Virus record (IMG/VR): IMGVR_UViG_3300046003_006038
Location: 1-64,000 of that record
Length of the DNA: 64,000 nt
Origin: a virus
Lineage: Duplodnaviria > Heunggongvirae > Uroviricota > Caudoviricetes
Reading direction: 5' to 3' (one strand)
Part shown: in pieces, positions 5,529-20,986 of the stretch
How the letters are laid out: every line of letters starts with the position of its first letter
Position numbering within the stretch: position 1 is the stretch's first letter
Notes under the pieces: model-generated
What the model saw: the letters and a program-made list of their open reading frames with translations, nothing else
What the model was told of the DNA's origin: nothing
The model's database searches: none
Program-made: the position numbers and the translations under genes

Positions 5529-5542
5529 AATTGTTTTGAATT

Positions 5543-5740
5543 TTAGTTGAAAAAATCCCTTACCGCTAAGTTGATAACACTCCCTGCAATTATAGGCCAT
5601 ACGACAATTGTCACTAGTATTTCGCCAAAAGTCATTGTAGTACTAGAACGAGTAGCCCATATAATGGCATCCCCTATTGCTGCACAAATAAATCCTACAA
5701 TAAAGTAATCTAATAAGATATCTAAAATTAAACTTTCCAT
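5543..5740 (-). CDS. small two-TM membrane protein
   Basis: 65 aa ORF with two hydrophobic helices. Confidence 0.5.
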   Translation of the reverse strand: MESLILDILLDYFIVGFICAAIGDAIIWATRSSTTMTFGEILVTIVVWPIIAGSVINLAVRDFFN

Positions 5741-5784
5741 AACCTTTTTGTTTTTAAATTATACATAAAGATAAGTGTTTATTC

Positions 5785-6210
5785 TCACTCTACCAACTGA
5801 TTTAGTAAAAAAAGTTGTTGAAATTTAGATAAAATAATACATTTTTCATAATACTCTTCTTCTATAAATAGATCAAGTATTTCCTGTAGGGCGTAGTTAA
5901 TGGATTGTAATCCAAATTCATCCTGTAGTGATACAATAGTAACTTCCGGTATCTCTTCAATTCTCTCAAGGTATCTCATAAGTCCTATAAAGTACTTTAG
6001 TTTAATAGAATCCCTTACGCAGTCATATTGCTGGCCGTATCTTTTTTCATATAACTGATCTATTATGTAATAATTCTCCACCCCCTTCACCACCGTCCCA
6101 AATAAAACAAAAGTGTTATCCAACACATTCTCGGATTGGTGTTCTCTATACACTTCTTCATCTCCTATCTGGAATATGTTGAAGAGTTGATTTGTATCTA
6201 ATTTTTTCAT
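5785..6210 (-). CDS. hypothetical protein
   Basis: ORF in track, ATG start. Confidence 0.55.
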   Translation of the reverse strand: MKKLDTNQLFNIFQIGDEEVYREHQSENVLDNTFVLFGTVVKGVENYYIIDQLYEKRYGQQYDCVRDSIKLKYFIGLMRYLERIEEIPEVTIVSLQDEFGLQSINYALQEILDLFIEEEYYEKCIILSKFQQLFLLNQLVE

Positions 6211-6270
6211 ATTATCTTTTATATAAATATATAATGTTGATGTAATGAAAAATTTTCCGGAAAAATTCCT

Positions 6271-6537
6271 ATGAATTTCTGGAAATTATACGGAAAAGGT
6301 GATTTGGAATTATTTATTAGTATGGAAGTATATAAAAACTTTAGCGGGAAATCATCTGTATATGCATATATTATAGGAGCAGATTACATATCCATACAGT
6401 TTAAGAATTTAAAAGTTTACAACTACACATACTCTAGGGCAGGGGCAGGTAATGTAGAGAGAATGAAAACTTTAGCCAAACAGGGGTTGGGGTTGAATAC
6501 TTTTATTAAGAGGTATGTCAATAGTAATTATAGTTAA
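6271..6537 (+). CDS. KTSC-domain protein (only plus-strand protein gene accepted)
   Basis: YISIQFKNLKVYNYTYSRAGAGNVERMKTLAKQGLGLNTFIKRY matches the KTSC pattern (..V.FKNG.VY.Y..V.......SKG...N..I...Y). The start could be the internal Met at ~6322. Confidence 0.5.
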   Translation: MNFWKLYGKGDLELFISMEVYKNFSGKSSVYAYIIGADYISIQFKNLKVYNYTYSRAGAGNVERMKTLAKQGLGLNTFIKRYVNSNYS

Positions 6538-6695
6538 ACTTATATAAATATATATTACCATAGTCTAAAAATCATCAGAAATATCTCTCTCAACTAAACC
6601 CGAGAGACCCGACTGTGATACCCGTTAGGGAAACATACTAGCAGTTTTCTCTCAACTTGACATCACCGTGACGTCACCTTGACCATCCACAAAAA

Positions 6696-6716
6696 AAAAA
6701 GAGGCCTAAGCCTCTT
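6696..6716 (-). terminator. rho-independent terminator (bidirectional hairpin GAGGC-CTAA-GCCTC with A10 / T-run flanks)
   Basis: aaaaaaaaaagaggcctaagcctcttgttt; on the minus strand the hairpin is followed by T10. Confidence 0.7.
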
Positions 6717-6981
6717 GTTTAAATTCTACCAAACTTTCAAATCGATATGTTACTACAACCTTCTTACCCATCACAAAGGTAAATCCAGTAAAACTAACTC
6801 TACCTACCCTATCTACATTACATTCGTAATCATTTAATACTATTCTACCATCTAAGGAAGATCTTACTTGTCTTGTAATACATTTACCTGCATCCTCTTT
6901 ATAGGAGTAAGTTGAATCTCCTTTGTAAGTTGATTGTCCGATTGTAAAAGGTGTTCCGTTTAAAAATTGTTCTCTTGTCAT
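6706..6981 (-). CDS. hypothetical protein
   Basis: ORF in track; promoter element upstream (6994-7045). Confidence 0.55.
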   Translation of the reverse strand: MTREQFLNGTPFTIGQSTYKGDSTYSYKEDAGKCITRQVRSSLDGRIVLNDYECNVDRVGRVSFTGFTFVMGKKVVVTYRFESLVEFKQEA

Positions 6982-6993
6982 AATGTTATCTTG

Positions 6994-7045
6994 TTTTAAT
7001 TATTGATACCTAAATATAAGAACTATTCTAATCAAAGGCAACTAT
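6994..7045 (-). promoter_or_regulatory. phage-family promoter element
   Basis: ttttaattattgatacctaaatataagaac...gcaact. Confidence 0.6.
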
Positions 7046-7261
7046 TTTTAAACTATTTTTATCTACTGAGGTTAATTTATTTTCTACTGTCCTTAAGACT
7101 GCTTCATCATTCTGATCAAACATCTCTAATAAGACTCCTATAACTCTCTTTCCAAAGAACTTATCTGTGCCTTCATAAACCATTCCAATCATTGGAGAGG
7201 AAGTCTTAGCGACTTTCCTCCCTTTGACCTTCCATGTTCCTCTTAAATCTCCATCACTCAT
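7028..7261 (-). CDS. hypothetical early protein
   Basis: ORF in track. Confidence 0.55.
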   Translation of the reverse strand: MSDGDLRGTWKVKGRKVAKTSSPMIGMVYEGTDKFFGKRVIGVLLEMFDQNDEAVLRTVENKLTSVDKNSLKIVAFD

Positions 7262-7458
7262 TAGGATGCCTTTGCTAACTCTTCTTGAACATTCTCTAAT
7301 GCGATCTTATAACCAAAGTTGATTGCCATCTGCATTAATAAAATATCCATTGAACCATTATTGGCTTTAGCAAATGCTTCAAGATCTTCTCTTGTGTTAG
7401 GAGTTGCTACAATACCTCTTGATAACATTTTGAACTGCTCTTCGAAAAACTTTTCCAT
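7261..7458 (-). CDS. hypothetical early protein
   Basis: ORF in track; ATGA overlap with downstream gene. Confidence 0.55.
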   Translation of the reverse strand: MEKFFEEQFKMLSRGIVATPNTREDLEAFAKANNGSMDILLMQMAINFGYKIALENVQEELAKAS

Positions 7459-7466
7459 AACTTATT

Positions 7467-7518
7467 TGTTTTAATTATTGATACCTAAATATAAGAAATA
7501 TAATTGTAACTAGCAACT
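7467..7518 (-). promoter_or_regulatory. phage-family promoter element
   Basis: Conserved motif copy. Confidence 0.6.
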
Positions 7519-7519
7519 T

Positions 7520-7879
7520 TTATTCATCATCTCTTTCTTCATCATTTGCTCTTTCTAGCTCAACTAAATCATCTGCTTCTCCAAAGTCCATAAAGGTATT
7601 CTCTAAAGCTTCTCTAACATAATCTAAATTCAATCCAATACTTTCTACTTCCAATCTATTACCATAACTGATATTAAATTCAACTGAAGTATAATCTACA
7701 ATCTCTTCTGTATTCCTTTCAAAGCTACCGATAACTTTATCAATTGCTCTTTCAATATCATCTACTGAGATTACTCTTCCTCCTCCTTCAATTGAATTGA
7801 TAAGATTGATAACATCTTCTTTTGAAAAGATTGAAGATGCTGAATTCTGAACTGACTGTAATACTAATTCTTTTTTCAT
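7520..7879 (-). CDS. hypothetical acidic protein
   Basis: ORF in track. Confidence 0.55.
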   Translation of the reverse strand: MKKELVLQSVQNSASSIFSKEDVINLINSIEGGGRVISVDDIERAIDKVIGSFERNTEEIVDYTSVEFNISYGNRLEVESIGLNLDYVREALENTFMDFGEADDLVELERANDEERDDE

Positions 7880-7889
7880 AATGTTATAT

Positions 7890-7940
7890 GTTTTAATTAT
7901 TGATACCTAAATATAAGAACTTTATCTTTATGAGGCAACT
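7890..7940 (-). promoter_or_regulatory. phage-family promoter element
   Basis: Conserved motif copy. Confidence 0.6.
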
Positions 7941-7948
7941 TTATTTTA

Positions 7949-8218
7949 CTAAGCTTTTTTTATTTCTTTTAAAAATTCCTCTAACATATCTTCATCTGAA
8001 TTATGATACCCTAACTGACTGAAGAAGTTAGTTTCTAATTTTGAAATCAAATCTGTAAAAGATTCTATTGAATCAATTTCAAATAACATTTCCCCAAGAT
8101 TTGAATAATGATTTCTAAATTCTTCTTTCTCTAAAGGAAGATCATCTGCAAAGATGTTGTACATTTCAATTGCAGATTCTTTCAATACTTGTTTTGCTGT
8201 ATATAATAAATTTGACAT
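7949..8218 (-). CDS. hypothetical protein
   Basis: ORF in track. Confidence 0.55.
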   Translation of the reverse strand: MSNLLYTAKQVLKESAIEMYNIFADDLPLEKEEFRNHYSNLGEMLFEIDSIESFTDLISKLETNFFSQLGYHNSDEDMLEEFLKEIKKA

Positions 8219-8227
8219 AATATATTG

Positions 8228-8277
8228 TTTTAATTATTGATACCTAAATGTATGAACTTTAATTCAATTGAGCAACT
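8228..8277 (-). promoter_or_regulatory. phage-family promoter element
   Basis: Conserved motif copy (variant ..aaatgtatgaac..). Confidence 0.55.
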
Positions 8278-8280
8278 TTT

Positions 8281-8538
8281 TTAAACTAAACATTTAAAAG
8301 AAGTTTCAAAATAAACACTACTTTTTACAGCTTGTCTAACAGCATAGATAGCATCCAATAATTCTTCATACTCAAAGACATACATAGGAAGTTTTGTTTG
8401 CATATTGCTGATTGAGAAACTTGTCCTGTTGTGGTTAATTAGAGTGTAATCTAAAGTTTCTCCATTTGAGCGTACTTCAAGATTTTTTTTATTACCCATG
8501 TAATCACTAACTCCGATAACTGCTACTAATTTTGACAT
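8281..8538 (-). CDS. hypothetical protein
   Basis: ORF in track. Confidence 0.55.
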   Translation of the reverse strand: MSKLVAVIGVSDYMGNKKNLEVRSNGETLDYTLINHNRTSFSISNMQTKLPMYVFEYEELLDAIYAVRQAVKSSVYFETSFKCLV

Positions 8539-8549
8539 AATATATACTG

Positions 8550-8600
8550 TTTTAATTATTGATACCTAAATATACGAAATAGATTAGTAACTAGCAACTA
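8550..8600 (-). promoter_or_regulatory. phage-family promoter element
   Basis: Conserved motif copy. Confidence 0.6.
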
Positions 8601-8611
8601 TTTCACAAACT

Positions 8612-8642
8612 ATTTTAACCCAAAAAGGCCCCTAATAGGAGC
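8612..8642 (-). terminator. rho-independent terminator
   Basis: Minus strand: GGGCUCCUAUUAGGGGCC hairpin followed by UUUUUGGG. Confidence 0.5.
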
Positions 8643-8667
8643 CCTTTCTTCGATCAATAATTAAAAA

Positions 8668-9456
8668 CTATTCAGCTAAAGTGTGCTGAACAATATTTTC
8701 TCGTAGTCCATAAACTTGATCAATTATAGAACTAACGTTTACATTTTCTTCACTTGATGTACTACCTCCATGAGCAAAAGTAAGTACTGCAGTACCTTTC
8801 TTACCTGACTTAGAAACATCAATCAACTTAATATTAATTACAGTTGGAGTGTAGTTGTACTTCAATTGAATACCTTTTCCTTTGACAAACTCAACTCCAC
8901 CATTCTTTAAATCGAATTCAATTTTTTCTCTTTCTATAACTCTAATTAACTCTTGAACTTCTCTAACCTCTCTTCCTACTTGTTCCATTTCTTTATACAC
9001 TGCACTATATTCTTCTCTGAAAGAAAGCACAGCTTCATTTGCAGCATCAATTATTTTATCTTGATCATTCAAAACAATCTCTGCTAAATCTCCTAACATT
9101 CTTAATCTTTTTAATTCGAAAGAGTCAACTCCTTTTGTAGAAGTAGTATAGTAAGATAAATCAATTCCACTATAACACTTGTTACTTTTCACTCCATCAA
9201 AATTCCAATTCTCTCTTAAATTTAAACTAAATAATTCTTTCTTGTAAGAGTAATCTGGATGATCTGCTTTGAAGTAAACAGACCCTCTAGTTACTTCAAT
9301 GTAAGCATAAGGACTAAATCCTGAGAAGAAAGGAAGTAAAGCATCTGAAATTGCTTGTTGCTCTCTTACGTAAATGTCCCCTCTTTTGTTTTCTATTAAT
9401 TCTTTTTGAGCTGTAAGGATTGCTCTTTGATCCTCTAATAAACTTAATCTTGTCAT
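8668..9456 (-). CDS. hypothetical protein (262 aa)
   Basis: ORF in track. Confidence 0.6.
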   Translation of the reverse strand: MTRLSLLEDQRAILTAQKELIENKRGDIYVREQQAISDALLPFFSGFSPYAYIEVTRGSVYFKADHPDYSYKKELFSLNLRENWNFDGVKSNKCYSGIDLSYYTTSTKGVDSFELKRLRMLGDLAEIVLNDQDKIIDAANEAVLSFREEYSAVYKEMEQVGREVREVQELIRVIEREKIEFDLKNGGVEFVKGKGIQLKYNYTPTVINIKLIDVSKSGKKGTAVLTFAHGGSTSSEENVNVSSIIDQVYGLRENIVQHTLAE

Positions 9457-9464
9457 GATGTTAT

Positions 9465-9515
9465 ATGTTTTAATTATTGATACCTAAATATATGAACATT
9501 GATCCTAATAAGCAA
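9465..9515 (-). promoter_or_regulatory. phage-family promoter element
   Basis: Conserved motif copy; the ~80 bp region is duplicated at 10021-10100. Confidence 0.6.
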
Positions 9516-9548
9516 CTATTTTAACAACTTTTTTTAAACTTTTTTTAG

Positions 9549-9635
9549 TAGTCAGGACAGGATTTGAACCTGTATCTTTATGTTGCCTAGTATTTTTACC
9601 GTACAACTTGCGTCTACCAATTCCGCCACCTGACT
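9549..9635 (-). tRNA. tRNA-like gene, type II (tRNA-Leu-like D-arm), non-canonical anticodon region; possible pseudo-tRNA
   Basis: Minus strand AGTCAGG-TG-GCGGAATTGGTAGACGC...ACAGG-TTCAAAT-CCTGT-CCTGACT-A. It has a perfect 7-bp acceptor, a Leu-type D-arm and a canonical T-arm. No 5-bp/7-nt anticodon stem-loop can be drawn in the 36-nt middle segment. No encoded CCA. Confidence 0.5.
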
Positions 9636-9649
9636 GTTTTAAAAACCTA

Positions 9650-10012
9650 CTACGATAATTTTCGTAGTAAGTACTTGTAAATATCCTCTGAAGTAATGTC
9701 TAACTTCATATCAGTACAGAATGCTTTAATAACATCAAACTGATCTTCAGGATCTGAAACTAAATCAATGCCGTCTACATTTATCAAACATTGATTACCT
9801 TGAGCATCTTGAACTGCATACAAAGTGTCATTAGGCCAGTTTAGATGATTCTCTACTGCAAATACAGTACCTTGCATACCTACTAAAAATGCCTCATTGT
9901 GCTCAGTATTCTTAAAACCTAACAATCTGAACATGTCATCGTAAGTTGTATAAGTTCTTCCTGGATTAGTAATTACTACTTTGCTTCCTACTTTAATTTT
10001 TGAATTTGCCAT
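9650..10012 (-). CDS. hypothetical protein
   Basis: ORF in track. Confidence 0.55.
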   Translation of the reverse strand: MANSKIKVGSKVVITNPGRTYTTYDDMFRLLGFKNTEHNEAFLVGMQGTVFAVENHLNWPNDTLYAVQDAQGNQCLINVDGIDLVSDPEDQFDVIKAFCTDMKLDITSEDIYKYLLRKLS

Positions 10013-10024
10013 GATTTTTATTGT

Positions 10025-10075
10025 TTTAATTATTGATACCTAAATATATGAACATTGATTCTAATAAGCAACTAT
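10025..10075 (-). promoter_or_regulatory. phage-family promoter element
   Basis: Conserved motif copy. Confidence 0.6.
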
Positions 10076-10108
10076 TTTAACAACTTTTTTTAATTTATTT
10101 TTAAACCC

Positions 10109-10408
10109 TTATTTCAGGGCTTTTAATATTTCTCTCTCAGCATCATTTGAAACTGATTTACTTTTTGATCCGATATGCCATGTTACATACTGATCCCTTT
10201 CTAACGGACGACCTTCCTTCCAGTCGTAAATACAAAATACTTCCCCTTCGTTTGTTTCCATTTCCCATTCGAAATTCGTTTTGTCCTCTCCCGTATTATA
10301 TTCCATGGTCGGCTCTCCGAATGCTGAAATTAATTGATCAACTGTTGCTCGAATTACAACTCCGTGAAATGATGTCCCGTCAGTGTTTTGATAAGTCTTT
10401 TTTGCCAT
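10109..10408 (-). CDS. hypothetical protein
   Basis: ORF in track. Confidence 0.55.
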   Translation of the reverse strand: MAKKTYQNTDGTSFHGVVIRATVDQLISAFGEPTMEYNTGEDKTNFEWEMETNEGEVFCIYDWKEGRPLERDQYVTWHIGSKSKSVSNDAEREILKALK

Positions 10409-10414
10409 GATTTT

Positions 10415-10475
10415 ATATGTTTTAATTATTGATACCTAAAGATAAGAAAAAGGCCCCGAAGGGCCAACCCTTTTG
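10415..10475 (-). promoter_or_regulatory. terminator-promoter unit (GGCCC-UUCG-GGGCC hairpin + U-run, then family promoter)
   Basis: aaaaaggccccgaagggccaaccctttt on the plus strand. On the minus strand the hairpin is followed by UUUUUCUU and TATCTTTAGGTATC. Confidence 0.6.
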
Positions 10476-10479
10476 TCAA

Positions 10480-10737
10480 TTATTTTTTAAAAGTTTTTCT
10501 ATTGGCTGTAAATGAGATAACCTCGTTTAAGTTAACAAATCTGAAGTCTCTTTTCTGCATATCGTATACAGTTAGTAAATTCTTTTCGGAAGGACTGAAA
10601 GAATGTCCAACTCCTTTAACTCCTTTTCTAACCCCTCTCATGGCATTCATTTTTCTAAGACTCCCATCTTTTTTAACAAAAGTTACAGAGAAGATTTTCT
10701 TGTTAGCAGTTTCTTGTAATAGATTTTCTACGATCAT
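10480..10737 (-). CDS. hypothetical basic protein
   Basis: ORF in track. Confidence 0.55.
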   Translation of the reverse strand: MIVENLLQETANKKIFSVTFVKKDGSLRKMNAMRGVRKGVKGVGHSFSPSEKNLLTVYDMQKRDFRFVNLNEVISFTANRKTFKK

Positions 10738-10744
10738 GATTTTA

Positions 10745-10800
10745 TATGTTTTAATTATTGATACCTAAATATAAGAAGAAGCCTCCGAAGAGGCAACTTT
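10745..10800 (-). promoter_or_regulatory. terminator-promoter unit (GCCUC-UUCG-GAGGC hairpin overlapping the -33 TTG)
   Basis: gcctccgaagaggcaacttttttt; same arrangement at 23843 and 61985. Confidence 0.6.
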
Positions 10801-10802
10801 TT

Positions 10803-11099
10803 TTAGATATTTTTTATAACTAATTTCAAATAGATTGGACGAATCTTACCACACTTTAATCTAGAAGCCCACCCCTCTTCTTCCAAAGCTGACTGTATAT
10901 CCTTTACAGATAATCCTTCTCTATGGAGAGCTACGATTCTAATTTTCATAGAATCCTCTTTTGGTTTCTTTTCTACAGTAGCTCCTTTGATATTTTTTTC
11001 AACAAGTGCTTGAAGATCTTCAGTCTTCATCATGTGAGCTGGTTTAGCAGTTTGAACATTTAAACTTTTTACTTGTGCAATTAATTCTGATCTTGTCAT
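10803..11099 (-). CDS. hypothetical protein
   Basis: ORF in track. Confidence 0.55.
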   Translation of the reverse strand: MTRSELIAQVKSLNVQTAKPAHMMKTEDLQALVEKNIKGATVEKKPKEDSMKIRIVALHREGLSVKDIQSALEEEGWASRLKCGKIRPIYLKLVIKNI

Positions 11100-11104
11100 G
11101 ATTT

Positions 11105-11160
11105 TATATGTTTTAATTATTGATACCTAAATATATGAACTTTAATAATGTGATGCAACT
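11105..11160 (-). promoter_or_regulatory. phage-family promoter element
   Basis: Conserved motif copy. Confidence 0.6.
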
Positions 11161-11345
11161 TTTTTTACAACTTTTTTTGAAAAATAAATTTGATAGTCAC
11201 AAATTAATTCAATAGCCTCATCTTCATCTAACTCTCCAAACTCTTCTTCATAGTTGTAAAGTATATCAGATAAGTAATCAAAATCTTCCACTTCTTTCTG
11301 AGTTAGGTTGTGAGCATCTAACCATTTGAAAACTTGTACTTTCAT
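11142..11345 (-). CDS. hypothetical acidic protein
   Basis: ORF in track. Confidence 0.5.
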   Translation of the reverse strand: MKVQVFKWLDAHNLTQKEVEDFDYLSDILYNYEEEFGELDEDEAIELICDYQIYFSKKVVKKVASHY

Positions 11346-11349
11346 AATA

Positions 11350-11405
11350 TATTGTTTTAATTATTGATACCTAAAGATAGTAAATTATATAACGTGAGAC
11401 AACTT
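11350..11405 (-). promoter_or_regulatory. phage-family promoter element
   Basis: Conserved motif copy. Confidence 0.55.
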
Positions 11406-11562
11406 TTTTTCAATTAATTTAATCCCATCCCTTGCTGGGCCATTAATACTACTAGATCTTGAGGATCAAAAGACATGTGAGTGATTCCTCTTAATGTGAC
11501 TGAATAATATACCAATCCTCCTAATGCTACTGTTTTTTCCATAACCTTTTATTTTTTTAGAA

Positions 11563-11784
11563 TTAATCTTCTTGAACTGTGAAAATATAAGTACCTACCT
11601 GAACCCTCTTACCTATCAAATCTTCTATATAGTAACTTCCTTCATCTGTCATGAATAATTGGTCATCAGTCCAATCCTCAGGAGTAGTAAGTAATTTAAA
11701 CAAGTCAACATCTTTGTACTGCTCTGTATTACCCCAATTGTCTACTACCTCTTCACATTTATTGATTTTAATTAAATCTTCCAT
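11563..11784 (-). CDS. hypothetical protein
   Basis: ORF in track. Confidence 0.55.
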   Translation of the reverse strand: MEDLIKINKCEEVVDNWGNTEQYKDVDLFKLLTTPEDWTDDQLFMTDEGSYYIEDLIGKRVQVGTYIFTVQED

Positions 11785-11789
11785 AATCT

Positions 11790-11845
11790 ATATTGTTTTA
11801 ATTATTGATACCTAAATATAAGGAGAAATATTATTACTAGCAACT
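11790..11845 (-). promoter_or_regulatory. phage-family promoter element
   Basis: Conserved motif copy. Confidence 0.6.
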
Positions 11846-12232
11846 TTTTTCTAAGTTATTTTCATTAATAACAAATACTTTATCAGCCCATGTCTTAGCA
11901 TTGACAGATCTATACTGTGCCTGGTCCATTAGATTTGTATTATAGAATAAACCATTAACTGTCCCTACAGTAAGATCCTCAGCTATCTTTTCATCTAATA
12001 TAATTACTTTAGTTCCTTTCTTAGCAAATACTGTCATCCAATGATTAGTTCCTTCAGCTTTGAATTGAATAGTCTGAAGAGCTCCTTTCTTCCATCTAGT
12101 AAGGCTAGGTAATTCAGAACCTATCTCAGATGCTATCATAAAGCCTGCTTGTACCTTTACTATGGCCTGAAATCTACCTTTTCTTTCTCCAATGAAATTT
12201 ACTAACTGTAATCCTTTGATGTTGTTTACCAT
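11837..12232 (-). CDS. hypothetical protein
   Basis: ORF in track. Confidence 0.55.
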   Translation of the reverse strand: MVNNIKGLQLVNFIGERKGRFQAIVKVQAGFMIASEIGSELPSLTRWKKGALQTIQFKAEGTNHWMTVFAKKGTKVIILDEKIAEDLTVGTVNGLFYNTNLMDQAQYRSVNAKTWADKVFVINENNLEKSC

Positions 12233-12237
12233 GATAT

Positions 12238-12290
12238 ATGTCGTTTTAATTATTGATACCTAAAGATAAGGAATTGTATAATATGAACCA
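12238..12290 (-). promoter_or_regulatory. phage-family promoter element
   Basis: Conserved motif copy. Confidence 0.55.
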
Positions 12291-12365
12291 ACTATTTACT
12301 ATAATATTTTCCTATTAAAAGTATACCTGCCATAAATAAAATATATTAAAAAAACTTTGTGAATT

Positions 12366-12400
12366 AGTTGCTGGATAGAATCATTCTTCATATCTTTAGG
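12366..12400 (+). promoter_or_regulatory. plus-strand copy of the family promoter (AGTTGC-N20-TATCTTTAGGTAT)
   Basis: Same -33/-7 spacing as the ~25 minus-strand copies, but oriented rightwards. Confidence 0.55.
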
Positions 12401-12404
12401 TATG

Positions 12405-12548
12405 TTAGAAGGGAATACAGGGGCCTGGCTTTGAGAGATAGTCGGAAGAGTGGACGGTCCGGTACGCCTGTTTCTGTAGTCGGTAATACCTAGTACCTGG
12501 TGATAAAAAAAGAAGGACCCTGATTGGAGTCCTTTTTCTTGTGCTTGT
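12405..12548 (+). ncRNA. candidate small non-coding RNA (~145 nt) bounded by a promoter and an intrinsic terminator
   Basis: Promoter at 12366-12400; GC-rich transcript body with no ORF longer than 10 aa; terminator AGGACCCUGAUUGGAGUCCUUUUUCUU at 12517-12548. Confidence 0.45.
12517..12548. terminator. bidirectional rho-independent terminator
   Basis: aaaaaaagaaggaccctgattggagtcctttttctt; the hairpin has a T-run after it on both strands. Confidence 0.6.
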
Positions 12549-12632
12549 CCTTCCTGGTGTAGGATTTCTTTGACTTGTGTACTAGGTGCTTGGAAGCAGC
12601 CCACCTCTCCTGGAGGGTAACTTGAATTGTTT

Positions 12633-12854
12633 TCATGGTGTATTATTAATAAAGAATATAGAGTAGACATAAGGAGTATTTAGTTTAAAGGTTTTACCTA
12701 CCTTAGCCTGTACCCTGTTAGATATAAATATTGAAGGAGGAGTTACCTCTACAGTACTCCATATAGGCCCTACCTCAACTAACTTCACTCTTCTAGAAGG
12801 TGATTCAGGACACCAGCAATCCCTCCCTATAACCGTATTTAATTCTTTTATCAT
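12633..12854 (-). CDS. hypothetical small protein (73 aa)
   Basis: ATG follows the promoter element at 12860-12905. The track start 12944 lies upstream of that promoter, so it was trimmed. Confidence 0.4.
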   Translation of the reverse strand: MIKELNTVIGRDCWCPESPSRRVKLVEVGPIWSTVEVTPPSIFISNRVQAKVGKTFKLNTPYVYSIFFINNTP

Positions 12855-12859
12855 AACCC

Positions 12860-12905
12860 TTACTGTTTTTAGATACCTAAAGATAAGAACAATAAGCCTT
12901 ATAAG
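12860..12905 (-). promoter_or_regulatory. phage-family promoter element (variant)
   Basis: agatacctaaagataagaac...gcaact. Confidence 0.5.
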
Positions 12906-12944
12906 CAACTTTTTATTAATCTTTTTTTTAACCCCCTCCTGCAA

Positions 12945-13540
12945 GGGGGGAAGAGATGGGGAGAGGTAACGGGTAGCTAGAACGGGTCTCTATCGGGTCT
13001 CTAGACGGGTAACAAAACGGGTTACTAGCCCGGGTTACCAAACGGGTAGCTAGAACGGGTATCTCCTTACACTCTCTCCCTGTCCCCTATAGGTACCGGT
13101 ACCAAACGGGTATCATAACCGGGTATCTCCTTACACTATAAGACAGTATATTACCTCTTATATAGAAAAAAACTATTAGGGAGGCACATACCCCTCATTT
13201 TCCTTATACTTATTTTACCTAGCCTTTTACCTTCTTCTACACATCGTATATACTATACAGTACCTTTTCATACCTACTACCATATGTCTTTATACTCTTT
13301 ACTAGGTTTTACTACTCTTTATGTTTAATCAGAGTCCTTAACCTTTTATTATGTATCTCAGCAGTTCTCCCTATGTCTCTCCTTATATCTCTCCAGCTCT
13401 ATATGTATGTATATTCGGGTAATGGGCCGGGACAGAAACGGGTAATTGAATGGGTATCGGACCGGGTCGCAGACCAAGGAGCCTGCTTAGGCTTCGCCGT
13501 TGGTAGACGGGTCTCTTAACGGGTTTCTCTATAGGATTGT
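12945..13540. repeat. iteron region: at least 15 copies of (A)ACGGGT-type heptamer in two clusters flanking a pyrimidine/AT-rich 280-bp core; candidate replication origin or pac region
   Basis: aacgggtagctagaacgggt occurs twice; gggtatctccttacact occurs twice. More ACGGGT/CCGGGT copies at 13437-13530. No credible ORF. Confidence 0.55.
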
Positions 13541-13627
13541 CCATTGTCCTTATAACGTCTTCTTTATTATCCTATATAGTATTCTTATTTATTATATTGC
13601 TGGAGATATTATTTCTTTCTATAGTAT

Positions 13628-13846
13628 TTACCCCTCTACGGATATTTTCTTTATTCTTATTTGCCAAACTTCTTTTACTTTTATGTATCCATTCTCGTCT
13701 GGCTTTCCTACATACTTTAGTAAGGTCATATGACTATTCTTTTTTATTAGATTGAATGTCTTTGGATCATAATAGTCTCTAAGGGTAATAATATAACCTA
13801 TCCTTCTACATATTCTCCAATAAAGATTTCCTATTAGCTTTTTCAT
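13628..13846 (-). CDS. hypothetical basic protein
   Basis: ORF in track. Confidence 0.45.
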   Translation of the reverse strand: MKKLIGNLYWRICRRIGYIITLRDYYDPKTFNLIKKNSHMTLLKYVGKPDENGYIKVKEVWQIRIKKISVEG

Positions 13847-13847
13847 A

Positions 13848-14036
13848 TTATTCGTCCATTGACATAAAGAATGATACTATAAGAGCCATTACCATATACA
13901 ACCTAACATAGGCCCATTCAATATTTGGTTCAAGAATACTCCATGTTATAAAACATCCTATTGCATACAATACTATACAAAGTGCTAACGGTAATGCTAT
14001 AAAAAATCCTAAATAAATTTCTAAAAACTTTTTCAT
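13848..14036 (-). CDS. small membrane protein
   Basis: ORF in track, trimmed to the MKKFLEIYLG start; two TM helices. Confidence 0.5.
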   Translation of the reverse strand: MKKFLEIYLGFFIALPLALCIVLYAIGCFITWSILEPNIEWAYVRLYMVMALIVSFFMSMDE

Positions 14037-14230
14037 ATCTCTTCCAATGTTAATATTGATATACAATGTGGAAAGTTATCATAGTCTCTTAGGATGATTA
14101 ATCCACCTGCTTCCTTTACCACCTGTACAGCTATTCCTTCTATAACCTTTCCTGCTCCTTTTCTAGAGTTAAAGGTTACTTTATTACCTCTATACTTCTT
14201 ATGATATAATACTACGTCTTCAATTTTCAT
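14033..14230 (-). CDS. hypothetical protein
   Basis: The track start is TTG; the ATG (MKIEDVV) was chosen. Confidence 0.5.
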   Translation of the reverse strand: MKIEDVVLYHKKYRGNKVTFNSRKGAGKVIEGIAVQVVKEAGGLIILRDYDNFPHCISILTLEEI

Positions 14231-14384
14231 CTTGTACAACTAAATAAGGTTTATCATTCTCTGTCTTTTTTATTGTACCCCTTTGTATTAATTCCTGAGT
14301 ACCTTGAGGATCTTTCTGAGACATTATTAGGATTGTCTCCTCCATGTAAATTACTTTCATACTACTTTTATTTAGCTTTTTAAC

Positions 14385-14460
14385 CTCCTACAACTCGGAG
14401 GGTTGGGAGAATTTGCGCGTGACACCTTCGGTAAGGAGAGAGAAGCGCCCCTCCTTCCCT
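14385..14460. repeat. GC-rich structured element, copy 1 (core 14409-14454, shared with 49972-50017)
   Basis: gaatttgcgcgtgacaccttcggtaaggagagagaagcgcccctcc is ~88% identical to the second copy. It has an internal dyad CACCTTCGGTG flanked by C-rich and G-rich tracts. Confidence 0.6.
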
Positions 14461-14466
14461 AAGTCT

Positions 14467-14565
14467 CTAGATTGAATCAATCTGTTCCTGTGTTAAACTA
14501 TCTCTCCATTCTTGTACATACTTCTCATCTTCGTCAAGTAATGCCTGTAATTCTTCTTCTGTCAT
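14467..14565 (-). CDS. acidic micro-ORF (32 aa)
   Basis: Hand translation MTEEELQALLDEDEKYVQEWRDSLTQEQIDSI; lies between the mini-HTH gene and element copy 1. Confidence 0.3.
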   Translation of the reverse strand: MTEEELQALLDEDEKYVQEWRDSLTQEQIDSI

Positions 14566-14580
14566 AACCTTTATTTTTTA

Positions 14581-14703
14581 TTAAGAATTAATAACCCTAC
14601 AAACCCATGCTTGAGAAACATTAAGTCTTTGTGCAATAATAGAAGTTGTTAAATTTTCATTAAAGAATAAATCCTTTGCCATTTGTGTTTTTGTAATTTT
14701 CAT
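14581..14703 (-). CDS. mini helix-turn-helix DNA-binding protein (40 aa)
   Basis: Hand translation MKITKTQMAKDLFFNENLTTSIIAQRLNVSQAWVCRVINS; classic HTH (TTSIIAQRLNVSQAWVCRVI). Family promoter immediately upstream. Confidence 0.5.
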   Translation of the reverse strand: MKITKTQMAKDLFFNENLTTSIIAQRLNVSQAWVCRVINS

Positions 14704-14705
14704 AA

Positions 14706-14760
14706 CCTTTATTGTTTTTAATTATATCTAAATATACGAAAAAAGAGCTGCGCTAGCAAC
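14706..14760 (-). promoter_or_regulatory. terminator-promoter unit (GAGUUGC-UAGC-GCAGCUC hairpin + U-run, family promoter)
   Basis: aaaaaagagctgcgctagcaactcttttatt; near-identical copy at 15485-15515. Confidence 0.55.
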
Positions 14761-14771
14761 TCTTTTATTAA

Positions 14772-15452
14772 TTATTTACTAAATGTTTCGCTGTAGTATT
14801 GTTCTGCTGTTTCAAAATGTTTTCTACTCTTTTCGGGCAATCCGTAGATATTACATTGTAGCCAACCCTCATTAAACGAATCAATAATCTGTTTCTTTTC
14901 CATTTCTTTGGCTTGGTAAAAATCAACTGGTGTTAATTTACCATTAGAGTTGTATTGATTCTCTAAAAATTCTACTGCTGTTTGTTTAGTTCCTACTGGT
15001 TGTAATAATGCAGTGTAATCTTTTTCTTGTTTAGGTTCTTCTTGTGGAATTATAATTTCGTATCTATAATAAGCAAACCTTTTCATGTGGTCAGATATAC
15101 CTTTCTTTTTAACCTCAACCTCCTCACAACTTGGATTATTAACGAACCATTCTAAAAACTCATCATCAATACCTTGTACACCATCTTTGATTAAGTCTTG
15201 GTCTGTTGTAAGTATGATTTTTTTACCATTTTTATCAGCATCAACCCACATAGAATCTATTTTACCTTTATCTCTATGAATTATTTCATTTTTGTAAATA
15301 AACCAATCACCTTCTTTAATTTCTTCATCATTAGTGATGGAGATGTGTTGGGTATTCTTTCTCCATTGAAGTCTATGTAATTCTAATACACCATCTTTGT
15401 TGTAAGATAACCTACTTGAATTTTCCGTTGGTAATACGTGAATATTTTTCAT
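14772..15452 (-). CDS. hypothetical protein (226 aa)
   Basis: ORF in track. Confidence 0.6.
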   Translation of the reverse strand: MKNIHVLPTENSSRLSYNKDGVLELHRLQWRKNTQHISITNDEEIKEGDWFIYKNEIIHRDKGKIDSMWVDADKNGKKIILTTDQDLIKDGVQGIDDEFLEWFVNNPSCEEVEVKKKGISDHMKRFAYYRYEIIIPQEEPKQEKDYTALLQPVGTKQTAVEFLENQYNSNGKLTPVDFYQAKEMEKKQIIDSFNEGWLQCNIYGLPEKSRKHFETAEQYYSETFSK

Positions 15453-15454
15453 AA

Positions 15455-15520
15455 TCTTTTTATTTAATTACTATATCTAAATATACGAAAAAAGAGCTGC
15501 GTAAGCAACTCTTTTACTAA
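15455..15520 (-). promoter_or_regulatory. terminator-promoter unit
   Basis: Conserved motif copy with gagctgcgtaagcaactc hairpin. Confidence 0.55.
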
Positions 15521-15539
15521 TTATTTTTAAAATATTTTA

Positions 15540-16376
15540 CTATTTTATATTCATCATGAAGTTACCTCCACCACTTGTGATGTATTGTGGTACCTTAGAT
15601 CCACCTCTTCTCCATGCTTCAATCCATTGTTGTTGTAATAGCATCGGTGTTAATGTTCTTTGCTTCAAAGTATTTGCTTCAGCTTCAGCTCTTGCTCTTG
15701 TAAGTGTTGATTGAGCATCTCCTTCTGCTTCTGCTACTTTAATCTTTGCTTCAGCTTCGGCTTGCTTAACTCTATTCTCAGCCATTAAAGCTTTCTGTAC
15801 TGCATTGTTTTTGGCATTAATAGCATTCTTAAATGATTTTGGATATTCTAAATTAGTTGTAAATTGATCCAATACAAATCCTTCTGGCTCTAATTGTTTT
15901 CTTAGTGTAGCTTTTACTTTATTATCAAATGCCTCTCTACTTGAGATTAATTGATCAGCAGTATAACTATTTGTAACAATTCTGAATGCTTCTGTTACCG
16001 CTGTCTTTAAGAATCCATTTTCAATACCATCTAAGTCTTTTCTATATTTTGCAAAGATCTGTGTGGCTTTGTCTGGATTAATTCTATAGTTTACAATTGG
16101 GCTAACATGAAACTCTGATCCATCCTTACTATTCACTACAAATGAACCCTCGTCTGTATATTCTTTATGACGAATATTGATTGGAAATTCATAAATTGTA
16201 GTTGTGATTGGATTATAAAACACTGTACCTGTACATTCTGTTACTCCACTCACCCCTCGTCCTGTACCAAACTTGTTTACTTTGATACCAATGTTACCTG
16301 AGTCAATATTTTCACATGACATTGTAACTGCAAAAATTGTTAGGATTAATCCTACTGCTACTAAAATTCTGTTCAT
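15540..16376 (-). CDS. SPFH/band-7 (prohibitin/HflKC-like) domain lipoprotein
   Basis: Signal peptide plus VTMSC lipobox. Ala/Glu-rich coiled segment AKNNAVQKALMAENRVKQAEAEAKIKVAEAEGDAQSTLTRARAEAEA typical of band-7 proteins. Confidence 0.6.
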   Translation of the reverse strand: MNRILVAVGLILTIFAVTMSCENIDSGNIGIKVNKFGTGRGVSGVTECTGTVFYNPITTTIYEFPINIRHKEYTDEGSFVVNSKDGSEFHVSPIVNYRINPDKATQIFAKYRKDLDGIENGFLKTAVTEAFRIVTNSYTADQLISSREAFDNKVKATLRKQLEPEGFVLDQFTTNLEYPKSFKNAINAKNNAVQKALMAENRVKQAEAEAKIKVAEAEGDAQSTLTRARAEAEANTLKQRTLTPMLLQQQWIEAWRRGGSKVPQYITSGGGNFMMNIK

Positions 16377-16411
16377 AACTTGTTGTTTAAATTTGATTTA
16401 TAATTAATTGT

Positions 16412-16891
16412 TTATTTTTTAATTTTAATTGATTCTACACTAACACCAAACTTCTCTGCTATTTGTTCTAATGTAAGTTCTATGTCTTTAGGTCCTTCTA
16501 TTTCTTTGGCGTATTTCCAATCACAAGTACTGAAAACTTCTTCAACATGTTGATTTATTTCAGATCCATTCCAAGCTATAAATTTACCATTCTTTTTCAT
16601 AAACACTTTCCTTCTCTTCCATGTTTCTTCATTATCTGAAACCATCATCCATCGTTCTTGAAACCCTATGTTCTCAAAAGGGTTTCTAATAAAAGCTGAT
16701 GGGTATTTATCATAATGTTGGTATTTACCATCTAATGTATAAGTTGTATAAGTGACTTTACCTGTCCTAATGGGAAAGAAGTCCTCTAGTTTTACATTAG
16801 TAACTTCTATTTCACCATCAGATATAGTCCAAATAGTATCTCCCACTTTTACACCACTAAGGTCTGCTAATTTTAAAATTTCTTCGTTCAT
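16412..16891 (-). CDS. hypothetical protein
   Basis: ORF in track. Confidence 0.55.
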   Translation of the reverse strand: MNEEILKLADLSGVKVGDTIWTISDGEIEVTNVKLEDFFPIRTGKVTYTTYTLDGKYQHYDKYPSAFIRNPFENIGFQERWMMVSDNEETWKRRKVFMKKNGKFIAWNGSEINQHVEEVFSTCDWKYAKEIEGPKDIELTLEQIAEKFGVSVESIKIKK

Positions 16892-16894
16892 ATT

Positions 16895-17386
16895 TTATTT
16901 TTCTAAAATTACTTTTGCGAATGTAGAATCTACTTTCATCTTCTCCATCAACTCTTTAGCTGACATATTCTTAGCTTCGTCTAAGATCTTTTGTTTTTGA
17001 TCTTTGATATTCAAATCTACTTTAGCTTCTGATGCCATGTTCTTTAACTCTGTTACTACAAAGTTGGATAACTCATGTGGGATTTGTTTAGCAGTTGAAT
17101 CTGTTGTTAAGAAATTCATTGTTTGACCTCCTGCTACAATTAGTAATGCATCTTTCTTACTTGGAGTAAAGATAAATAAACTCCAGAATAAAAATGCAAA
17201 TGGATAGGACCACCACATCCACTTTCTAGCTTGTACAGCTGAATCATCTTCACCATTACCTCGGCAAATAAAATTAACTACTGTTGAAATAACTACTACA
17301 GCTGTAAAAATAAATAATCCTACTTTAAACATGTCCCTTGCATTGTCTGCAACTGTTAACCAATAAAATAATTCTGTGTAATTCAT
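16895..17386 (-). CDS. membrane protein (2 TM)
   Basis: ORF in track; hydrophobic helices. Confidence 0.55.
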   Translation of the reverse strand: MNYTELFYWLTVADNARDMFKVGLFIFTAVVVISTVVNFICRGNGEDDSAVQARKWMWWSYPFAFLFWSLFIFTPSKKDALLIVAGGQTMNFLTTDSTAKQIPHELSNFVVTELKNMASEAKVDLNIKDQKQKILDEAKNMSAKELMEKMKVDSTFAKVILEK

Positions 17387-17389
17387 AAC

Positions 17390-17450
17390 TTATTTGTTTT
17401 TATTATTATAACTAAATATACGAAATATATTCTTAGGAGGCAACTATTTT
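17390..17450 (-). promoter_or_regulatory. phage-family promoter element (variant)
   Basis: ataactaaatatacgaaat...ggcaact. Confidence 0.5.
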
Positions 17451-17794
17451 AGCCCTAATTTTTTTCTTTTCCAATTTTCTTTTGAAGCGGTTGCAAACAT
17501 ATCATCAATTCTTTTCTTATTTTTGCTCCATATAGGAATAACACCTACATATTCTATATAGTAAGGAAACAGCCAATGAATTCTCCAAGATTTTTCTATA
17601 TCCTTCTTTAAGTATTTTGGTTCTATTTTATAACAATACTCTGATTGATATACCTCGTACTCATCTGATATCTTATTTAGATATTCTTCTAAAAGATTGT
17701 CATTAAGTATACCTTTGTTTTCAAGAATGAAAAAACTTGACAATATAACTGTTAATATAACTGCTAGAATTGTTAAAATTAATAAAAATACCAT
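17444..17794 (-). CDS. membrane-anchored protein
   Basis: N-terminal TM helix; ORF in track. Confidence 0.55.
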   Translation of the reverse strand: MVFLLILTILAVILTVILSSFFILENKGILNDNLLEEYLNKISDEYEVYQSEYCYKIEPKYLKKDIEKSWRIHWLFPYYIEYVGVIPIWSKNKKRIDDMFATASKENWKRKKLGLK

Positions 17795-17796
17795 AA

Positions 17797-18030
17797 CTAC
17801 TCCTGTTTTTCTTGTTTTACTTCTTCTGTTGATTCTTCCTCCGGCTTGAGTACTTTCAACAAATACAATCCTAAGAATGCAAACGCTACACCTACTATTG
17901 CAAGTACCACTATTCCTAAGTTGAATAAATAACTATCTGGTCTATTCATTAAGTATAATCCTAAGTCCATTAATTGCACTAACCCAAAGGCTAGTATCAA
18001 TCCTGCTAAAATTTTAATAACTGTTTTCAT
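17797..18030 (-). CDS. small two-TM membrane protein
   Basis: ORF in track. Confidence 0.55.
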   Translation of the reverse strand: MKTVIKILAGLILAFGLVQLMDLGLYLMNRPDSYLFNLGIVVLAIVGVAFAFLGLYLLKVLKPEEESTEEVKQEKQE

Positions 18031-18133
18031 ATCAACTATCGTTTATCGTTTATTAGTTCATACAGTACTATGCAAAATCCAATAGTAGCTGCTATTAATA
18101 TAATATTAAGGCAAATTTCAAATACACTTTCCA

Positions 18134-18334
18134 TTACTTACTTGAATTATTGTTTCTAAATAAAATTCCACATAGGATATTAATTCCTAATGCTTGCCAA
18201 AAGCCGATTGGATTGAATCCATCTGCTGCCCCTACTAAAGTATTGTTCCAAAGCCATTGTGTTGGCCATGCTAATACAATTGCTACTACAACTAGCATTC
18301 CTAATGCTGCTAATACTATTCCTAATTTTTCCAT
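18134..18334 (-). CDS. small two-TM membrane protein
   Basis: ORF in track. Confidence 0.5.
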   Translation of the reverse strand: MEKLGIVLAALGMLVVVAIVLAWPTQWLWNNTLVGAADGFNPIGFWQALGINILCGILFRNNNSSK

Positions 18335-18336
18335 AA

Positions 18337-18549
18337 TTACAATTCGTTTTCTTTTGTCCCTGAAAGTGCATCTACGTCTGCATACTTAGCATTTACTTGC
18401 TCAGCTAATACCTCTCTCAGCATTTTAATATTTTCTGATCCTACTTCCCGTAAAGCTCTCAAAGGTGATTTGTAGAGCTTAGGATGTATTTTTCCATTTT
18501 TCAGCACTACCTGAAAATAGTTTTTTGACTTCTCTGCTGCTTTTGTCAT
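18337..18549 (-). CDS. hypothetical basic protein
   Basis: ORF in track. Confidence 0.5.
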   Translation of the reverse strand: MTKAAEKSKNYFQVVLKNGKIHPKLYKSPLRALREVGSENIKMLREVLAEQVNAKYADVDALSGTKENEL

Positions 18550-18555
18550 TGTATT

Positions 18556-18792
18556 CTAGTCTATGTATATTAATTTTCCTTGTTCATCTTCTATTTTTGT
18601 TACTTGCATTTTCTTATCCAAATTCTCCAGCACTACTCGTCCGTTCATTTGGAAGTACATATTGAAGGCTTGTGCAAATGTTTGAAAGTCATGTGTCAAG
18701 TAGGCTCCCTTGTGCTGAAGGTAGTATTCGTAAAACCAAGCCAGATCATACTGGCCTGATTTTCTCATCTGTATGTATTTTTCCCTATCCAT
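18556..18792 (-). CDS. hypothetical protein
   Basis: ORF in track. Confidence 0.5.
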   Translation of the reverse strand: MDREKYIQMRKSGQYDLAWFYEYYLQHKGAYLTHDFQTFAQAFNMYFQMNGRVVLENLDKKMQVTKIEDEQGKLIYID

Positions 18793-19616
18793 TAGTTAAT
18801 GAATGCTGTTGCTAATTTAAAAAGCTTTTGATTAACTTCTAAATCTTTTTCGAATGACTTAATCTTTCTAACCTTTCTTACTTTAGCACCATTTAATGCT
18901 GCTGAATATCCTCCTTGAGTAATCTTCTCCTGGATTACATTAAATACTTTCCAAAGGTCATTTCCTTTATCTTCCTCTCTTGTAGGAGTTAAAACGTCTT
19001 GAATAGTTTCTTCATCCCATACAGCATCGATTCTATTAGTTCTCAACTGCATTGCATCGATAGCTAATTGTCTCTGCTCTACAGGGGTTAATTCTCTTAA
19101 CTGCATTTTGTTAAGAATCTGTACCTTATTAGGAAGATCAGCTACTGCTTGAGATACTACACCTCTTAATTCTTCGAAGGTATACCCTTTGTGACGGATT
19201 TTAAATGCTGAGAATTCCTCATCAGCTACTACAAGTCCATTTGAGCATACTAATCTGTAGATACCAACTCTAAATTGAAATGAATTAAATCCATCATGAG
19301 AGTTAGTTAAAATGATTCTCGGAAAAGCATCATCACCATTCTTACCTTTAATCATAAGATCTGGATTCTGAAATGATATCATGTGCTTGGAGAAGATTGT
19401 AGTCTTATCAGACTTTCTAGCCTTTCTTTGAGAGGCTGTTACTGGTAACCATCCTAACTTTTCTAAGTCATCGATGATAGTTTCAGTATTAACATGTAAG
19501 TATTTATCACTTACTTTGTTGCTTGTCGGCTCTGTAGCAAATGCTACTGGTGCTAAAGCTTTTACTTGATCTTTTGAAAGGTAAGAATCTAAACCTGTGT
19601 TGAATTTTGATAACAT
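18792..19616 (-). CDS. DUF932 (phage/plasmid-like) family protein
   Basis: LTNSHDGFNSF matches the conserved NSHDGS motif of DUF932. Confidence 0.55.
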   Translation of the reverse strand: MLSKFNTGLDSYLSKDQVKALAPVAFATEPTSNKVSDKYLHVNTETIIDDLEKLGWLPVTASQRKARKSDKTTIFSKHMISFQNPDLMIKGKNGDDAFPRIILTNSHDGFNSFQFRVGIYRLVCSNGLVVADEEFSAFKIRHKGYTFEELRGVVSQAVADLPNKVQILNKMQLRELTPVEQRQLAIDAMQLRTNRIDAVWDEETIQDVLTPTREEDKGNDLWKVFNVIQEKITQGGYSAALNGAKVRKVRKIKSFEKDLEVNQKLFKLATAFIN

Positions 19617-19619
19617 AAC

Positions 19620-19690
19620 TTTTTGTTTTTAATTGATTTCTATACCTAAATATACGAACAAAGATTCGTTCTAGCAACTAACTCACAAAC
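19620..19690 (-). promoter_or_regulatory. phage-family promoter element (variant)
   Basis: tatacctaaatatacgaac...agcaact. Confidence 0.5.
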
Positions 19691-19706
19691 TTTTTTTAAT
19701 TTATTT

Positions 19707-20042
19707 TTACAGAACTTCAGTTAATATCCTCCAACTCTTTAACATATTACCATCAAGAGTTACCTCAACCGGTTTTCCTTTTAATCTATCCACGGAGTCC
19801 ACCTTAGCTTCCTTTAATAACTTTGAAACATATCTCATGATTTCAGCATACCATCCATCTCTATCCTCTTCTGACCATTTTGTATGTTCTGACCATTTTA
19901 TTTGCTCTGCATCCCAATTAGCTTTTGAATCGCCAACTCCCCAGCTTCCAGCACTTAATGTAACATGAAGTCCTAACATTGCTCCTTGATAACCGCCAAG
20001 GCCAAAACTTACTGATTCAATTTTTCCTAACTTCTTTTCCAT
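19707..20042 (-). CDS. hypothetical protein
   Basis: ORF in track. Confidence 0.55.
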   Translation of the reverse strand: MEKKLGKIESVSFGLGGYQGAMLGLHVTLSAGSWGVGDSKANWDAEQIKWSEHTKWSEEDRDGWYAEIMRYVSKLLKEAKVDSVDRLKGKPVEVTLDGNMLKSWRILTEVL

Positions 20043-20052
20043 AACTTTTAAT

Positions 20053-20929: not shown

Positions 20930-20931
20930 AA

Positions 20932-20985: not shown

Positions 20986-20986
20986 T

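Follow-up and report, generated by a model that had tools for sequence, protein, structure and literature searches.

The OOP RNA of phage lambda is a short transcript that is made from its own promoter against the early genes, near a repeat-bearing origin, and that works purely by antisense overlap. The par locus of Enterococcus pAD1 is a type I toxin-antitoxin system (RNA I/fst and RNA II) whose small ORF and small RNA converge on one bidirectional terminator, an arrangement that is also found at the locus described here. 6S RNA and CsrB/RsmZ are protein-sequestering RNAs and provide a possible mode of action, that of an abundant folded RNA which is recognized by its shape and its invariant bases and which sometimes has multiple copies or repeated hairpins. 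PreQ1-I, SAM-II and pistol RNAs are comparable to the present RNA in size and in the density of invariant unpaired nucleotides. The stable RNAs C and D of phage T4 are phage-encoded small RNAs without known function, to which the likeness is by description alone. Bacteroidota phages abound in lakes, seas and the gut, and Hfq and CsrA, the classic RNA chaperones, are largely missing from their hosts. To our knowledge, RNA-based regulation in these phages is almost unexplored. The transcriptome of Cellulophaga phage phi38:1 revealed six putative ncRNAs, which are detailed in the supplement of that article (PMC5335546). As far as the article itself describes them, these phage-encoded small RNAs of a marine Bacteroidetes phage resemble the present one by description alone.

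The locus lies in a window of 64,000 nucleotides, the whole stretch of phage DNA that was analyzed. It shares with lambda OOP a promoter of its own, an opposed orientation, an intrinsic terminator that sits within the 3' end of a small convergent gene, and the proximity of repeats. Unlike in OOP, the conserved structured part is located outside the overlap and recurs in phages without the convergent gene, and the two RNAs show no sequence relation. As judged from its sequence, the stretch flagged in the preliminary description is a real stand-alone non-coding RNA gene, and its core is probably a new functional phage RNA that matches no catalogued family.

The TATCTTTAGGTAT motif occurs 19 times in the window at up to one mismatch, compared to a chance expectation of 0.38. 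Of these copies 18 are on the minus strand, and the only plus-strand copy, at 12391-12403, is an exact one, which would form the -7 box of a Bacteroidetes-type TAnnTTT[G/A] promoter. Its upstream element AGTTGC (12366-12371, -33 TTG) matches 20 minus-strand promoters in position and spacing. Promoter alignment showed that every mRNA promoter carries a CAATAATTAAAAC-N8-ATG leader. The plus-strand copy does not, and runs instead into GUUAGAAGGGAAUAC... with no ATG up to the terminator. A small RNA of ~135 nt (12404-12540, plus strand) is thereby predicted, its start being placed by the spacing from the -7 box and its end by the U-tract; the unit is kept in about 65 loci. The RNA would begin with a purine-rich leader, GUUAGAAGGGAAUACAGG (12404-12421). 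A divergent promoter, found by motif scan and promoter alignment at 12256-12268 on the minus strand, is predicted to serve the next early gene (11837-12232). Around 20 early promoters in the window (5700-23900, minus strand) share the AGTTGC-N-TATNTTTAGGTAT motif, and most of them also have the near-invariant 5' leader CAATAATTAAAAC, 8-10 nt before the ATG. The early region further encodes T5orf172 (GIY-YIG-like), SPFH/Band 7 and DUF932 domain proteins (4896-5600, 15540-16376 and 18792-19616, minus strand). A large phage-borne sugar/glycan biosynthesis cluster is located at 24800-44000 on the same strand, with several family 2, family 1 and family 10-like glycosyltransferases, GDP-mannose 4,6-dehydratase, epimerases and a DegT-type aminotransferase.

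At the 3' end of the unit, a hairpin (12513-12534) is followed by UUUUUCUU, with a U-tract at 12533-12540 and an A-run at 12505-12511. Folding and a terminator scan identified this element (12513-12540) as an intrinsic terminator with a predicted energy of -13.1 kcal/mol on the plus strand and -11.5 kcal/mol on the minus strand. The scan also calls the minus-strand terminator, and the predicted terminator is bidirectional because the A-run sits upstream of the hairpin; by sequence, a GC-rich hairpin with a U-tract immediately after it is present on both strands. In the Flavobacterium phage immuto the stem shows a compensatory change from GGAC/GUCC to GGGC/GCCC (A-U to G-C), and in many relatives the U-tail of the shared hairpin is present for the minus strand alone.

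The preliminary description of a promoter-to-terminator non-coding unit on the plus strand is borne out by the exact promoter, the hairpin with its U-tract and the conservation of the unit. Its rightward promoter copy is the exact and sole plus-strand one (12366-12403), and the strong terminator that it reported is found at 12513-12540, where it also serves as a minus-strand terminator. The statement that the unit opposes nearly all transcription agrees with the orientation of 18 of the 19 promoter motifs and with that of the large ORFs (51 of at least 150 amino acids, all but one on the minus strand). The reported richness in GC amounts to 0.47 for 12404-12540 and 0.60 for the core (12419-12466), compared to 0.34 for the whole window. 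The claim that no ORF exceeds 10 codons holds as far as ATG starts are concerned, but a 20-codon TTG frame exists at 12431; in most relatives this frame meets UAG two codons on (UUG AAA UAG).

The nearest isolate is Flavobacterium phage vB_FspM_immuto, with 78% identity over 12244-13300. Immuto keeps the promoter with its AGTTGC element, about 65 nt at the start of the RNA, the hairpin and the minus-strand sequence downstream, while the promoter spacer and the 3' half of the RNA have diverged, the latter with a 59-nt insertion. Pattern scans found the immuto-like unit in ~18 IMG/VR contigs, 47 metagenome contigs and one metagenome-assembled-genome contig, several of which carry a second core copy with its own promoter. 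Among these close relatives the core varies far less than the promoter spacer or the 3' part. In GenBank (MW353175) a 32-aa 'hypothetical protein', immuto26A_125, is annotated over the RNA core of immuto (L001 3104-3202, minus strand). This CDS is probably an annotation artefact.

A loosened pattern search of phage contigs with the ~45-nt core (12422-12465) yielded 223 loci with 181 distinct sequences, mostly from phages of Flavobacterium-like bacteria. The core stands behind at least three promoter types and in at least four contexts. Type i is the immuto-like context of the window, which also keeps AGTTGC, and type ii is found in a related group with a different leader. In type iii, a large group, the core abuts another recurring promoter-like motif and points the same way as the genes around it. 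In subfamily B it follows perfect Bacteroidetes TAnnTTTG boxes. Subfamily B includes the cultured Tenacibaculum phage Larrie, in which the RNA is opposite to the flanking genes and has its own terminator; the orientation of the core relative to the flanking genes thus differs among phage groups. A TAnnTTT[G/A] box was found upstream of the core in 87 of 164 cases, compared to 41 of 164 for a control stretch; elsewhere the core follows a different recurring promoter-like motif. At least two core copies, some of them in tandem, occur in 16 loci, and minimal members consist of promoter, core and U-run (L280). The purine-rich leader is restricted to type i relatives, where its length differs among loci, and it is missing in type iii, where the core adjoins the promoter. 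A pairing of the leader with 12467-12475, derived by hand, is possible and found no covariation support. Some type iii loci show no terminator before the next promoter, and there the core could act as a 5' leader. Type iii loci also carry a recurring ~45-nt terminator-like palindrome, GTGTGACGTTAGCC...GGCTAATGTCACAC (e.g. L098, L107, L093 and L140), and a promoter-like motif, TATAGCAYACAG-N-ACGG-N-TTGATAAT, upstream of both genes and the RNA core.

Membership of the window RNA in this family was assessed with a covariance model, R1, that was built from type iii sequences only and contained no immuto-like sequence. R1 matched the window at 12421-12469 on the plus strand (41.5 bits, E = 1.5e-11) and recovered all tested type i, type ii and subfamily B loci as well as phage Larrie. 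The window RNA has the first hairpin (H1), AAGA linker and second hairpin that define the family, with a same-strand promoter directly upstream. Inside a 99-aa ORF, R1 gave a weak second match (49805-49848, minus strand; 15.7 bits, E about 0.003), which was taken for a chance hit. Clustering of 1860 ORFs from the loci, in search of a partner protein by neighbourhood, gave no family common to all types. Across these contexts the core is independent of the neighbouring genes, with a predicted promoter of its own in every one of them.

The first hairpin, H1 (12424-12445), comprises the pairs C12424-G12445, C12425-G12444, G12427-C12443, G12428-U12442, C12429-G12441 and U12430-A12440, with U12426 bulged and an apical loop (12431-12439) that includes the unpaired U12431 and U12439. 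Covariation was tested on 51 type iii sequences, with slid partners and 500 shuffles as controls. The H1 cells were paired in 88.8%, compared to 26-44% with slid partners, and changes on both sides were found in 54 cells, compared to 18.8 +/- 7.1 after shuffling; none of the 500 shuffles reached 54. The best three pairs alternate between C-G and U-A (42:9), between AU, GU, GC and CG (22:15:8:6) and between CG and UA (28:23), and are never broken. RNAalifold independently predicts the H1 helix, and a second alignment gave similar covariation. The frequent G-U pairs in H1 fix the strand as plus, since they would be A-C on the opposite strand. Covariation thus supports H1, formed on the plus strand only.

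H1 is followed by the linker AAGA (12446-12449), which is invariant throughout the aligned family sequences, among them all 54 rows of alignment A4 and all 51 rows of A5, an invariance to be read with the limit that these bases belonged to the search patterns. The second hairpin pairs GUG(G) at 12450-12453 with (G)UAC at 12462-12465 around an 8-nt loop, ACGGUCCG. Pair counts for its family form, GU(R)(K)...(S)UAC, show mostly one-sided and wobble changes (U-A/U-G 104:32) and a few changes on both sides, the model alignment leaves its register uncertain by 2 nt, and this hairpin is supported more weakly than H1. The sequence of the core is invariant at about 20 positions, of which many are unpaired. 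A possible competing pairing of CGGA (12443-12446) with UCCG (12458-12461) clashes with the base of H1. Of this pseudoknot-type GGA/UCC pairing three pairs are constant and the fourth forms in only 77% of the sequences, with many C-A mismatches; it is unsupported, as there is no covariation. Conservation of structure across related phages, a check proposed in the preliminary description, was found as covariation of H1 across the wide family and not within the close relatives, which taken by themselves gave no significant covariation in the core. In these relatives neither the hand-derived helices P1 and P2 nor two alternative registers showed significant covariation, and a GGCC/GGCC pairing was dropped. 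The core is an independently promoted, strand-specific and structured RNA element under strong selection.

The 3' half of the RNA is a lineage-specific accessory part. An accessory hairpin, GUAGUCGGUAAUACCUAGUAC (12476-12496), with a GGUAAU loop, is found in a subset of type i loci and pairs poorly in the window itself; in subfamily B a GGUAAU-loop hairpin is located 5' of the core. Type i relatives have 0-6 tandem 18-19-nt hairpins (UUAAAG-loop-CUUUAA) between core and terminator, of which the window has none. These tandem hairpins (L001 3200-3330 and many type i loci) combine a constant stem with variable loops, and the array always opens with a 5' arm and closes with a 3' arm, a pattern suggestive of repetition at the RNA level. 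Type III antitoxin-like or decoy repeat RNAs (ToxI mimics) would show tandem repeats of ~34-47 nt; the window RNA is without repeats and the units of its relatives measure 18-19 nt.

The last ~50 nt of the RNA (12490-12540) are antisense to the 3' end of a conserved convergent gene for a strongly basic protein of 48 amino acids (MKTIQVTLQERWAASKHLVHKSKKSYTRKDKH..., 12490-12636, minus strand). Among 40 protein variants the variable columns are distributed over the codon positions as 14/10/30, and this concentration at third positions indicates that the ORF is a real gene. It occurs only beside type i cores and is kept in all type i loci. Its coding sequence crosses the bidirectional terminator hairpin and the stop codon lies beyond the T-run, so that terminated 48-aa transcripts would lack a stop codon. 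The protein is rich in lysine and arginine, has no hydrophobic stretch and gave no Pfam or PHROG match above threshold. In contrast to the par locus of pAD1, the protein is hydrophilic and not a membrane peptide, the RNA core is independent of the ORF, and 5' complementary repeats as in par were not found at this locus; the small hydrophobic toxin peptide of a type I toxin-antitoxin system is not what this gene encodes. A longer minus-strand ORF of 123 amino acids (12299-12670), in a different frame, is judged spurious, as had been proposed in the preliminary description: it matches no Pfam or PHROG family, its length is not conserved, and it is broken by the 59-nt indel in immuto, the longest open frame across the core in most relatives being ~43 aa. 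Passage through the terminator hairpin, noted in the preliminary description for the 123-aa ORF, is also a feature of the 48-aa gene, which is real.

Searches for known RNAs were negative. Rfam 15, at gathering and at permissive thresholds, gave no family for the window, immuto, a TARA contig and subfamily B loci, so the Rfam/Infernal scan that had been put forward as a check led to no match. In place of a family, only terminator-like chance hits appeared, e.g. ctRNA_p42d, whose 17.5 and 21.9 bits fall short of its threshold of 50. ARAGORN found no tRNA or tmRNA in the window; the only tRNA match of Rfam, at 9549-9635 on the minus strand (87 nt with a long insertion, 43.5 bits), was not reported by ARAGORN. 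Resemblances to the tmRNA 5' end, SRP helix 8, 5S loop E, Y RNA, the K-turn and boxB, to the 16S 530 loop and helix 45 and to the 23S GTPase centre were set aside as short-word coincidences without model support. Literature searches by sequence strings and by topic returned no description of this RNA.

Beyond the RNA, AACGGGTW-type repeats form two GC-rich clusters at 12950-13135 and 13420-13530 (also L001 3750-3900 and 4235-4345), which hold 7 of the 8 exact copies in the window, compared to a chance expectation of 1.2. Between the clusters lies an AT-rich non-coding stretch (13140-13400), itself conserved, and immuto has the clusters too. Such a layout resembles a replication origin or a set of sites for protein binding.

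Several explanations of the locus have to be weighed. It is scarcely credible that it is no RNA gene and acts as DNA bound by a protein or belongs to a coding frame. High sequence conservation and the CDS annotated over the core in immuto speak for such a view. Against it, the G-U pairs kept by covariation would read A-C on the opposite strand, conservation does not extend to the open frames (most relatives have the stop two codons after TTG), and a promoter is found directly upstream in three different promoter contexts. The direction of the RNA, toward the two conserved repeat clusters, led the preliminary description to consider an origin-linked RNA. Such an RNA, as a primer or activator for the ACGGGT repeat region, is very improbable: the predicted 3' end at 12540 leaves ~400 nt to the arrays, with the convergent gene and a minus-strand promoter (12873-12885) in between, the sole complementarity to the repeat region, 12455-12477 to 13432-13464, is not kept in immuto, and most family members reside in unrelated neighbourhoods without such arrays nearby. 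As predicted, the transcript would neither enter nor pair with an origin or DNA-unwinding region in the way of T4 ori or ColE1 RNA II transcripts. A role mainly as cis-antisense regulator of the 48-aa gene, by convergent transcription and in the manner of lambda OOP on cII or of RNA II on fst, has the ~50-nt overlap of 3' ends, the shared bidirectional terminator and the joint retention of RNA and gene in all type i loci in its favour. It is nevertheless quite doubtful, because the RNA varies most where it overlaps the gene, and this is not its conserved functional part. The conserved core is located 25-70 nt upstream of the overlap, it occurs in types ii and iii, in subfamily B and in Larrie without the 48-aa ORF, and tandem or extra copies face other genes. 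The antisense overlap with this small ORF is probably secondary.

Base-pairing is the mode of action of most known phage small RNAs, and the invariant purine-rich stretch of the core is partly unpaired in the model, so a trans-acting riboregulator whose invariant bases GRAAGAGURKAC pair with a conserved host or phage RNA deserves attention. It is considered unlikely, since ~20 invariant positions exceed the needs of a pairing seed, and the 64-kb window holds no complementary site above chance, neither as exact 10-mers nor at up to 3 mismatches. Duplex energies with the shared early-mRNA leaders equalled those of shuffled sequences (-18.0 vs -17.7), and among all minus-strand windows the best core matches were no outliers. 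The size of about 45-60 nt with invariant unpaired bases, the possible pseudoknot-like competing pairing and the stand-alone multi-copy genes with the core at the 5' end of the transcript are features that a small self-cleaving ribozyme or a ligand-binding aptamer, e.g. an RNA sponge, might show. This alternative is given little credence, as no Rfam ribozyme or riboswitch model matched at E values up to 10 and the proposed extra pairing found no covariation support; unlike for preQ1-I, SAM-II and pistol, no downstream gene would be controlled in most contexts of the core, and none of their Rfam models matches it.

Somewhat more than half of our confidence goes to a stand-alone small RNA gene of an uncatalogued family with a trans-acting folded core that would be recognized by a protein or ligand, a reading derived from sequence comparison. 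Host RNA polymerase would transcribe the RNA rightwards from the early-type promoter, and the transcript would end at the hairpin and U-tract. The functional part would be the 5'-proximal core (12422-12465) with its bulged-U hairpin, AAGA linker and second hairpin. The folded RNA may act in trans, because the invariant positions are many and partly unpaired, because orientation and neighbours vary between phage groups, because copies multiply within genomes and because the 64-kb window shows no complementary target above chance. Recognition of a folded RNA fits the ~20 invariant, often unpaired core bases better than a short pairing seed does. The exclusions made above and the pattern of conservation point to a conserved protein, possibly a small ligand, of host or phage as the recognizing partner, and the RNA may work as a decoy or regulator rather than by long antisense pairing. 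In this respect it would be comparable to 6S RNA and CsrB/RsmZ, but it is far smaller than 6S RNA, has no GGA-loop repeats and shows no Rfam match. Antisense overlap with the 48-aa gene and the shared terminator could add a secondary, OOP-like effect.

A more far-reaching suggestion, which is unlikely, is that the core represents a new class of self-contained functional RNA, either small ribozymes or high-affinity aptamers, that would sequester a host factor or a molecule of immune signalling. If true, hundreds of Bacteroidota phages would carry a ~45-60-nt core that is made early, from multiple copies, and acts by its fold. The present analysis corrects the annotation of small 'hypothetical proteins' that are now called over the RNA, and Flavobacterium phage immuto and Tenacibaculum phage Larrie offer cultured entry points for study of the family. 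The clear covariation, the ~20 invariant bases, the three unrelated promoter contexts and the presence of multiple copies indicate that this RNA has a strongly selected function in these phages.
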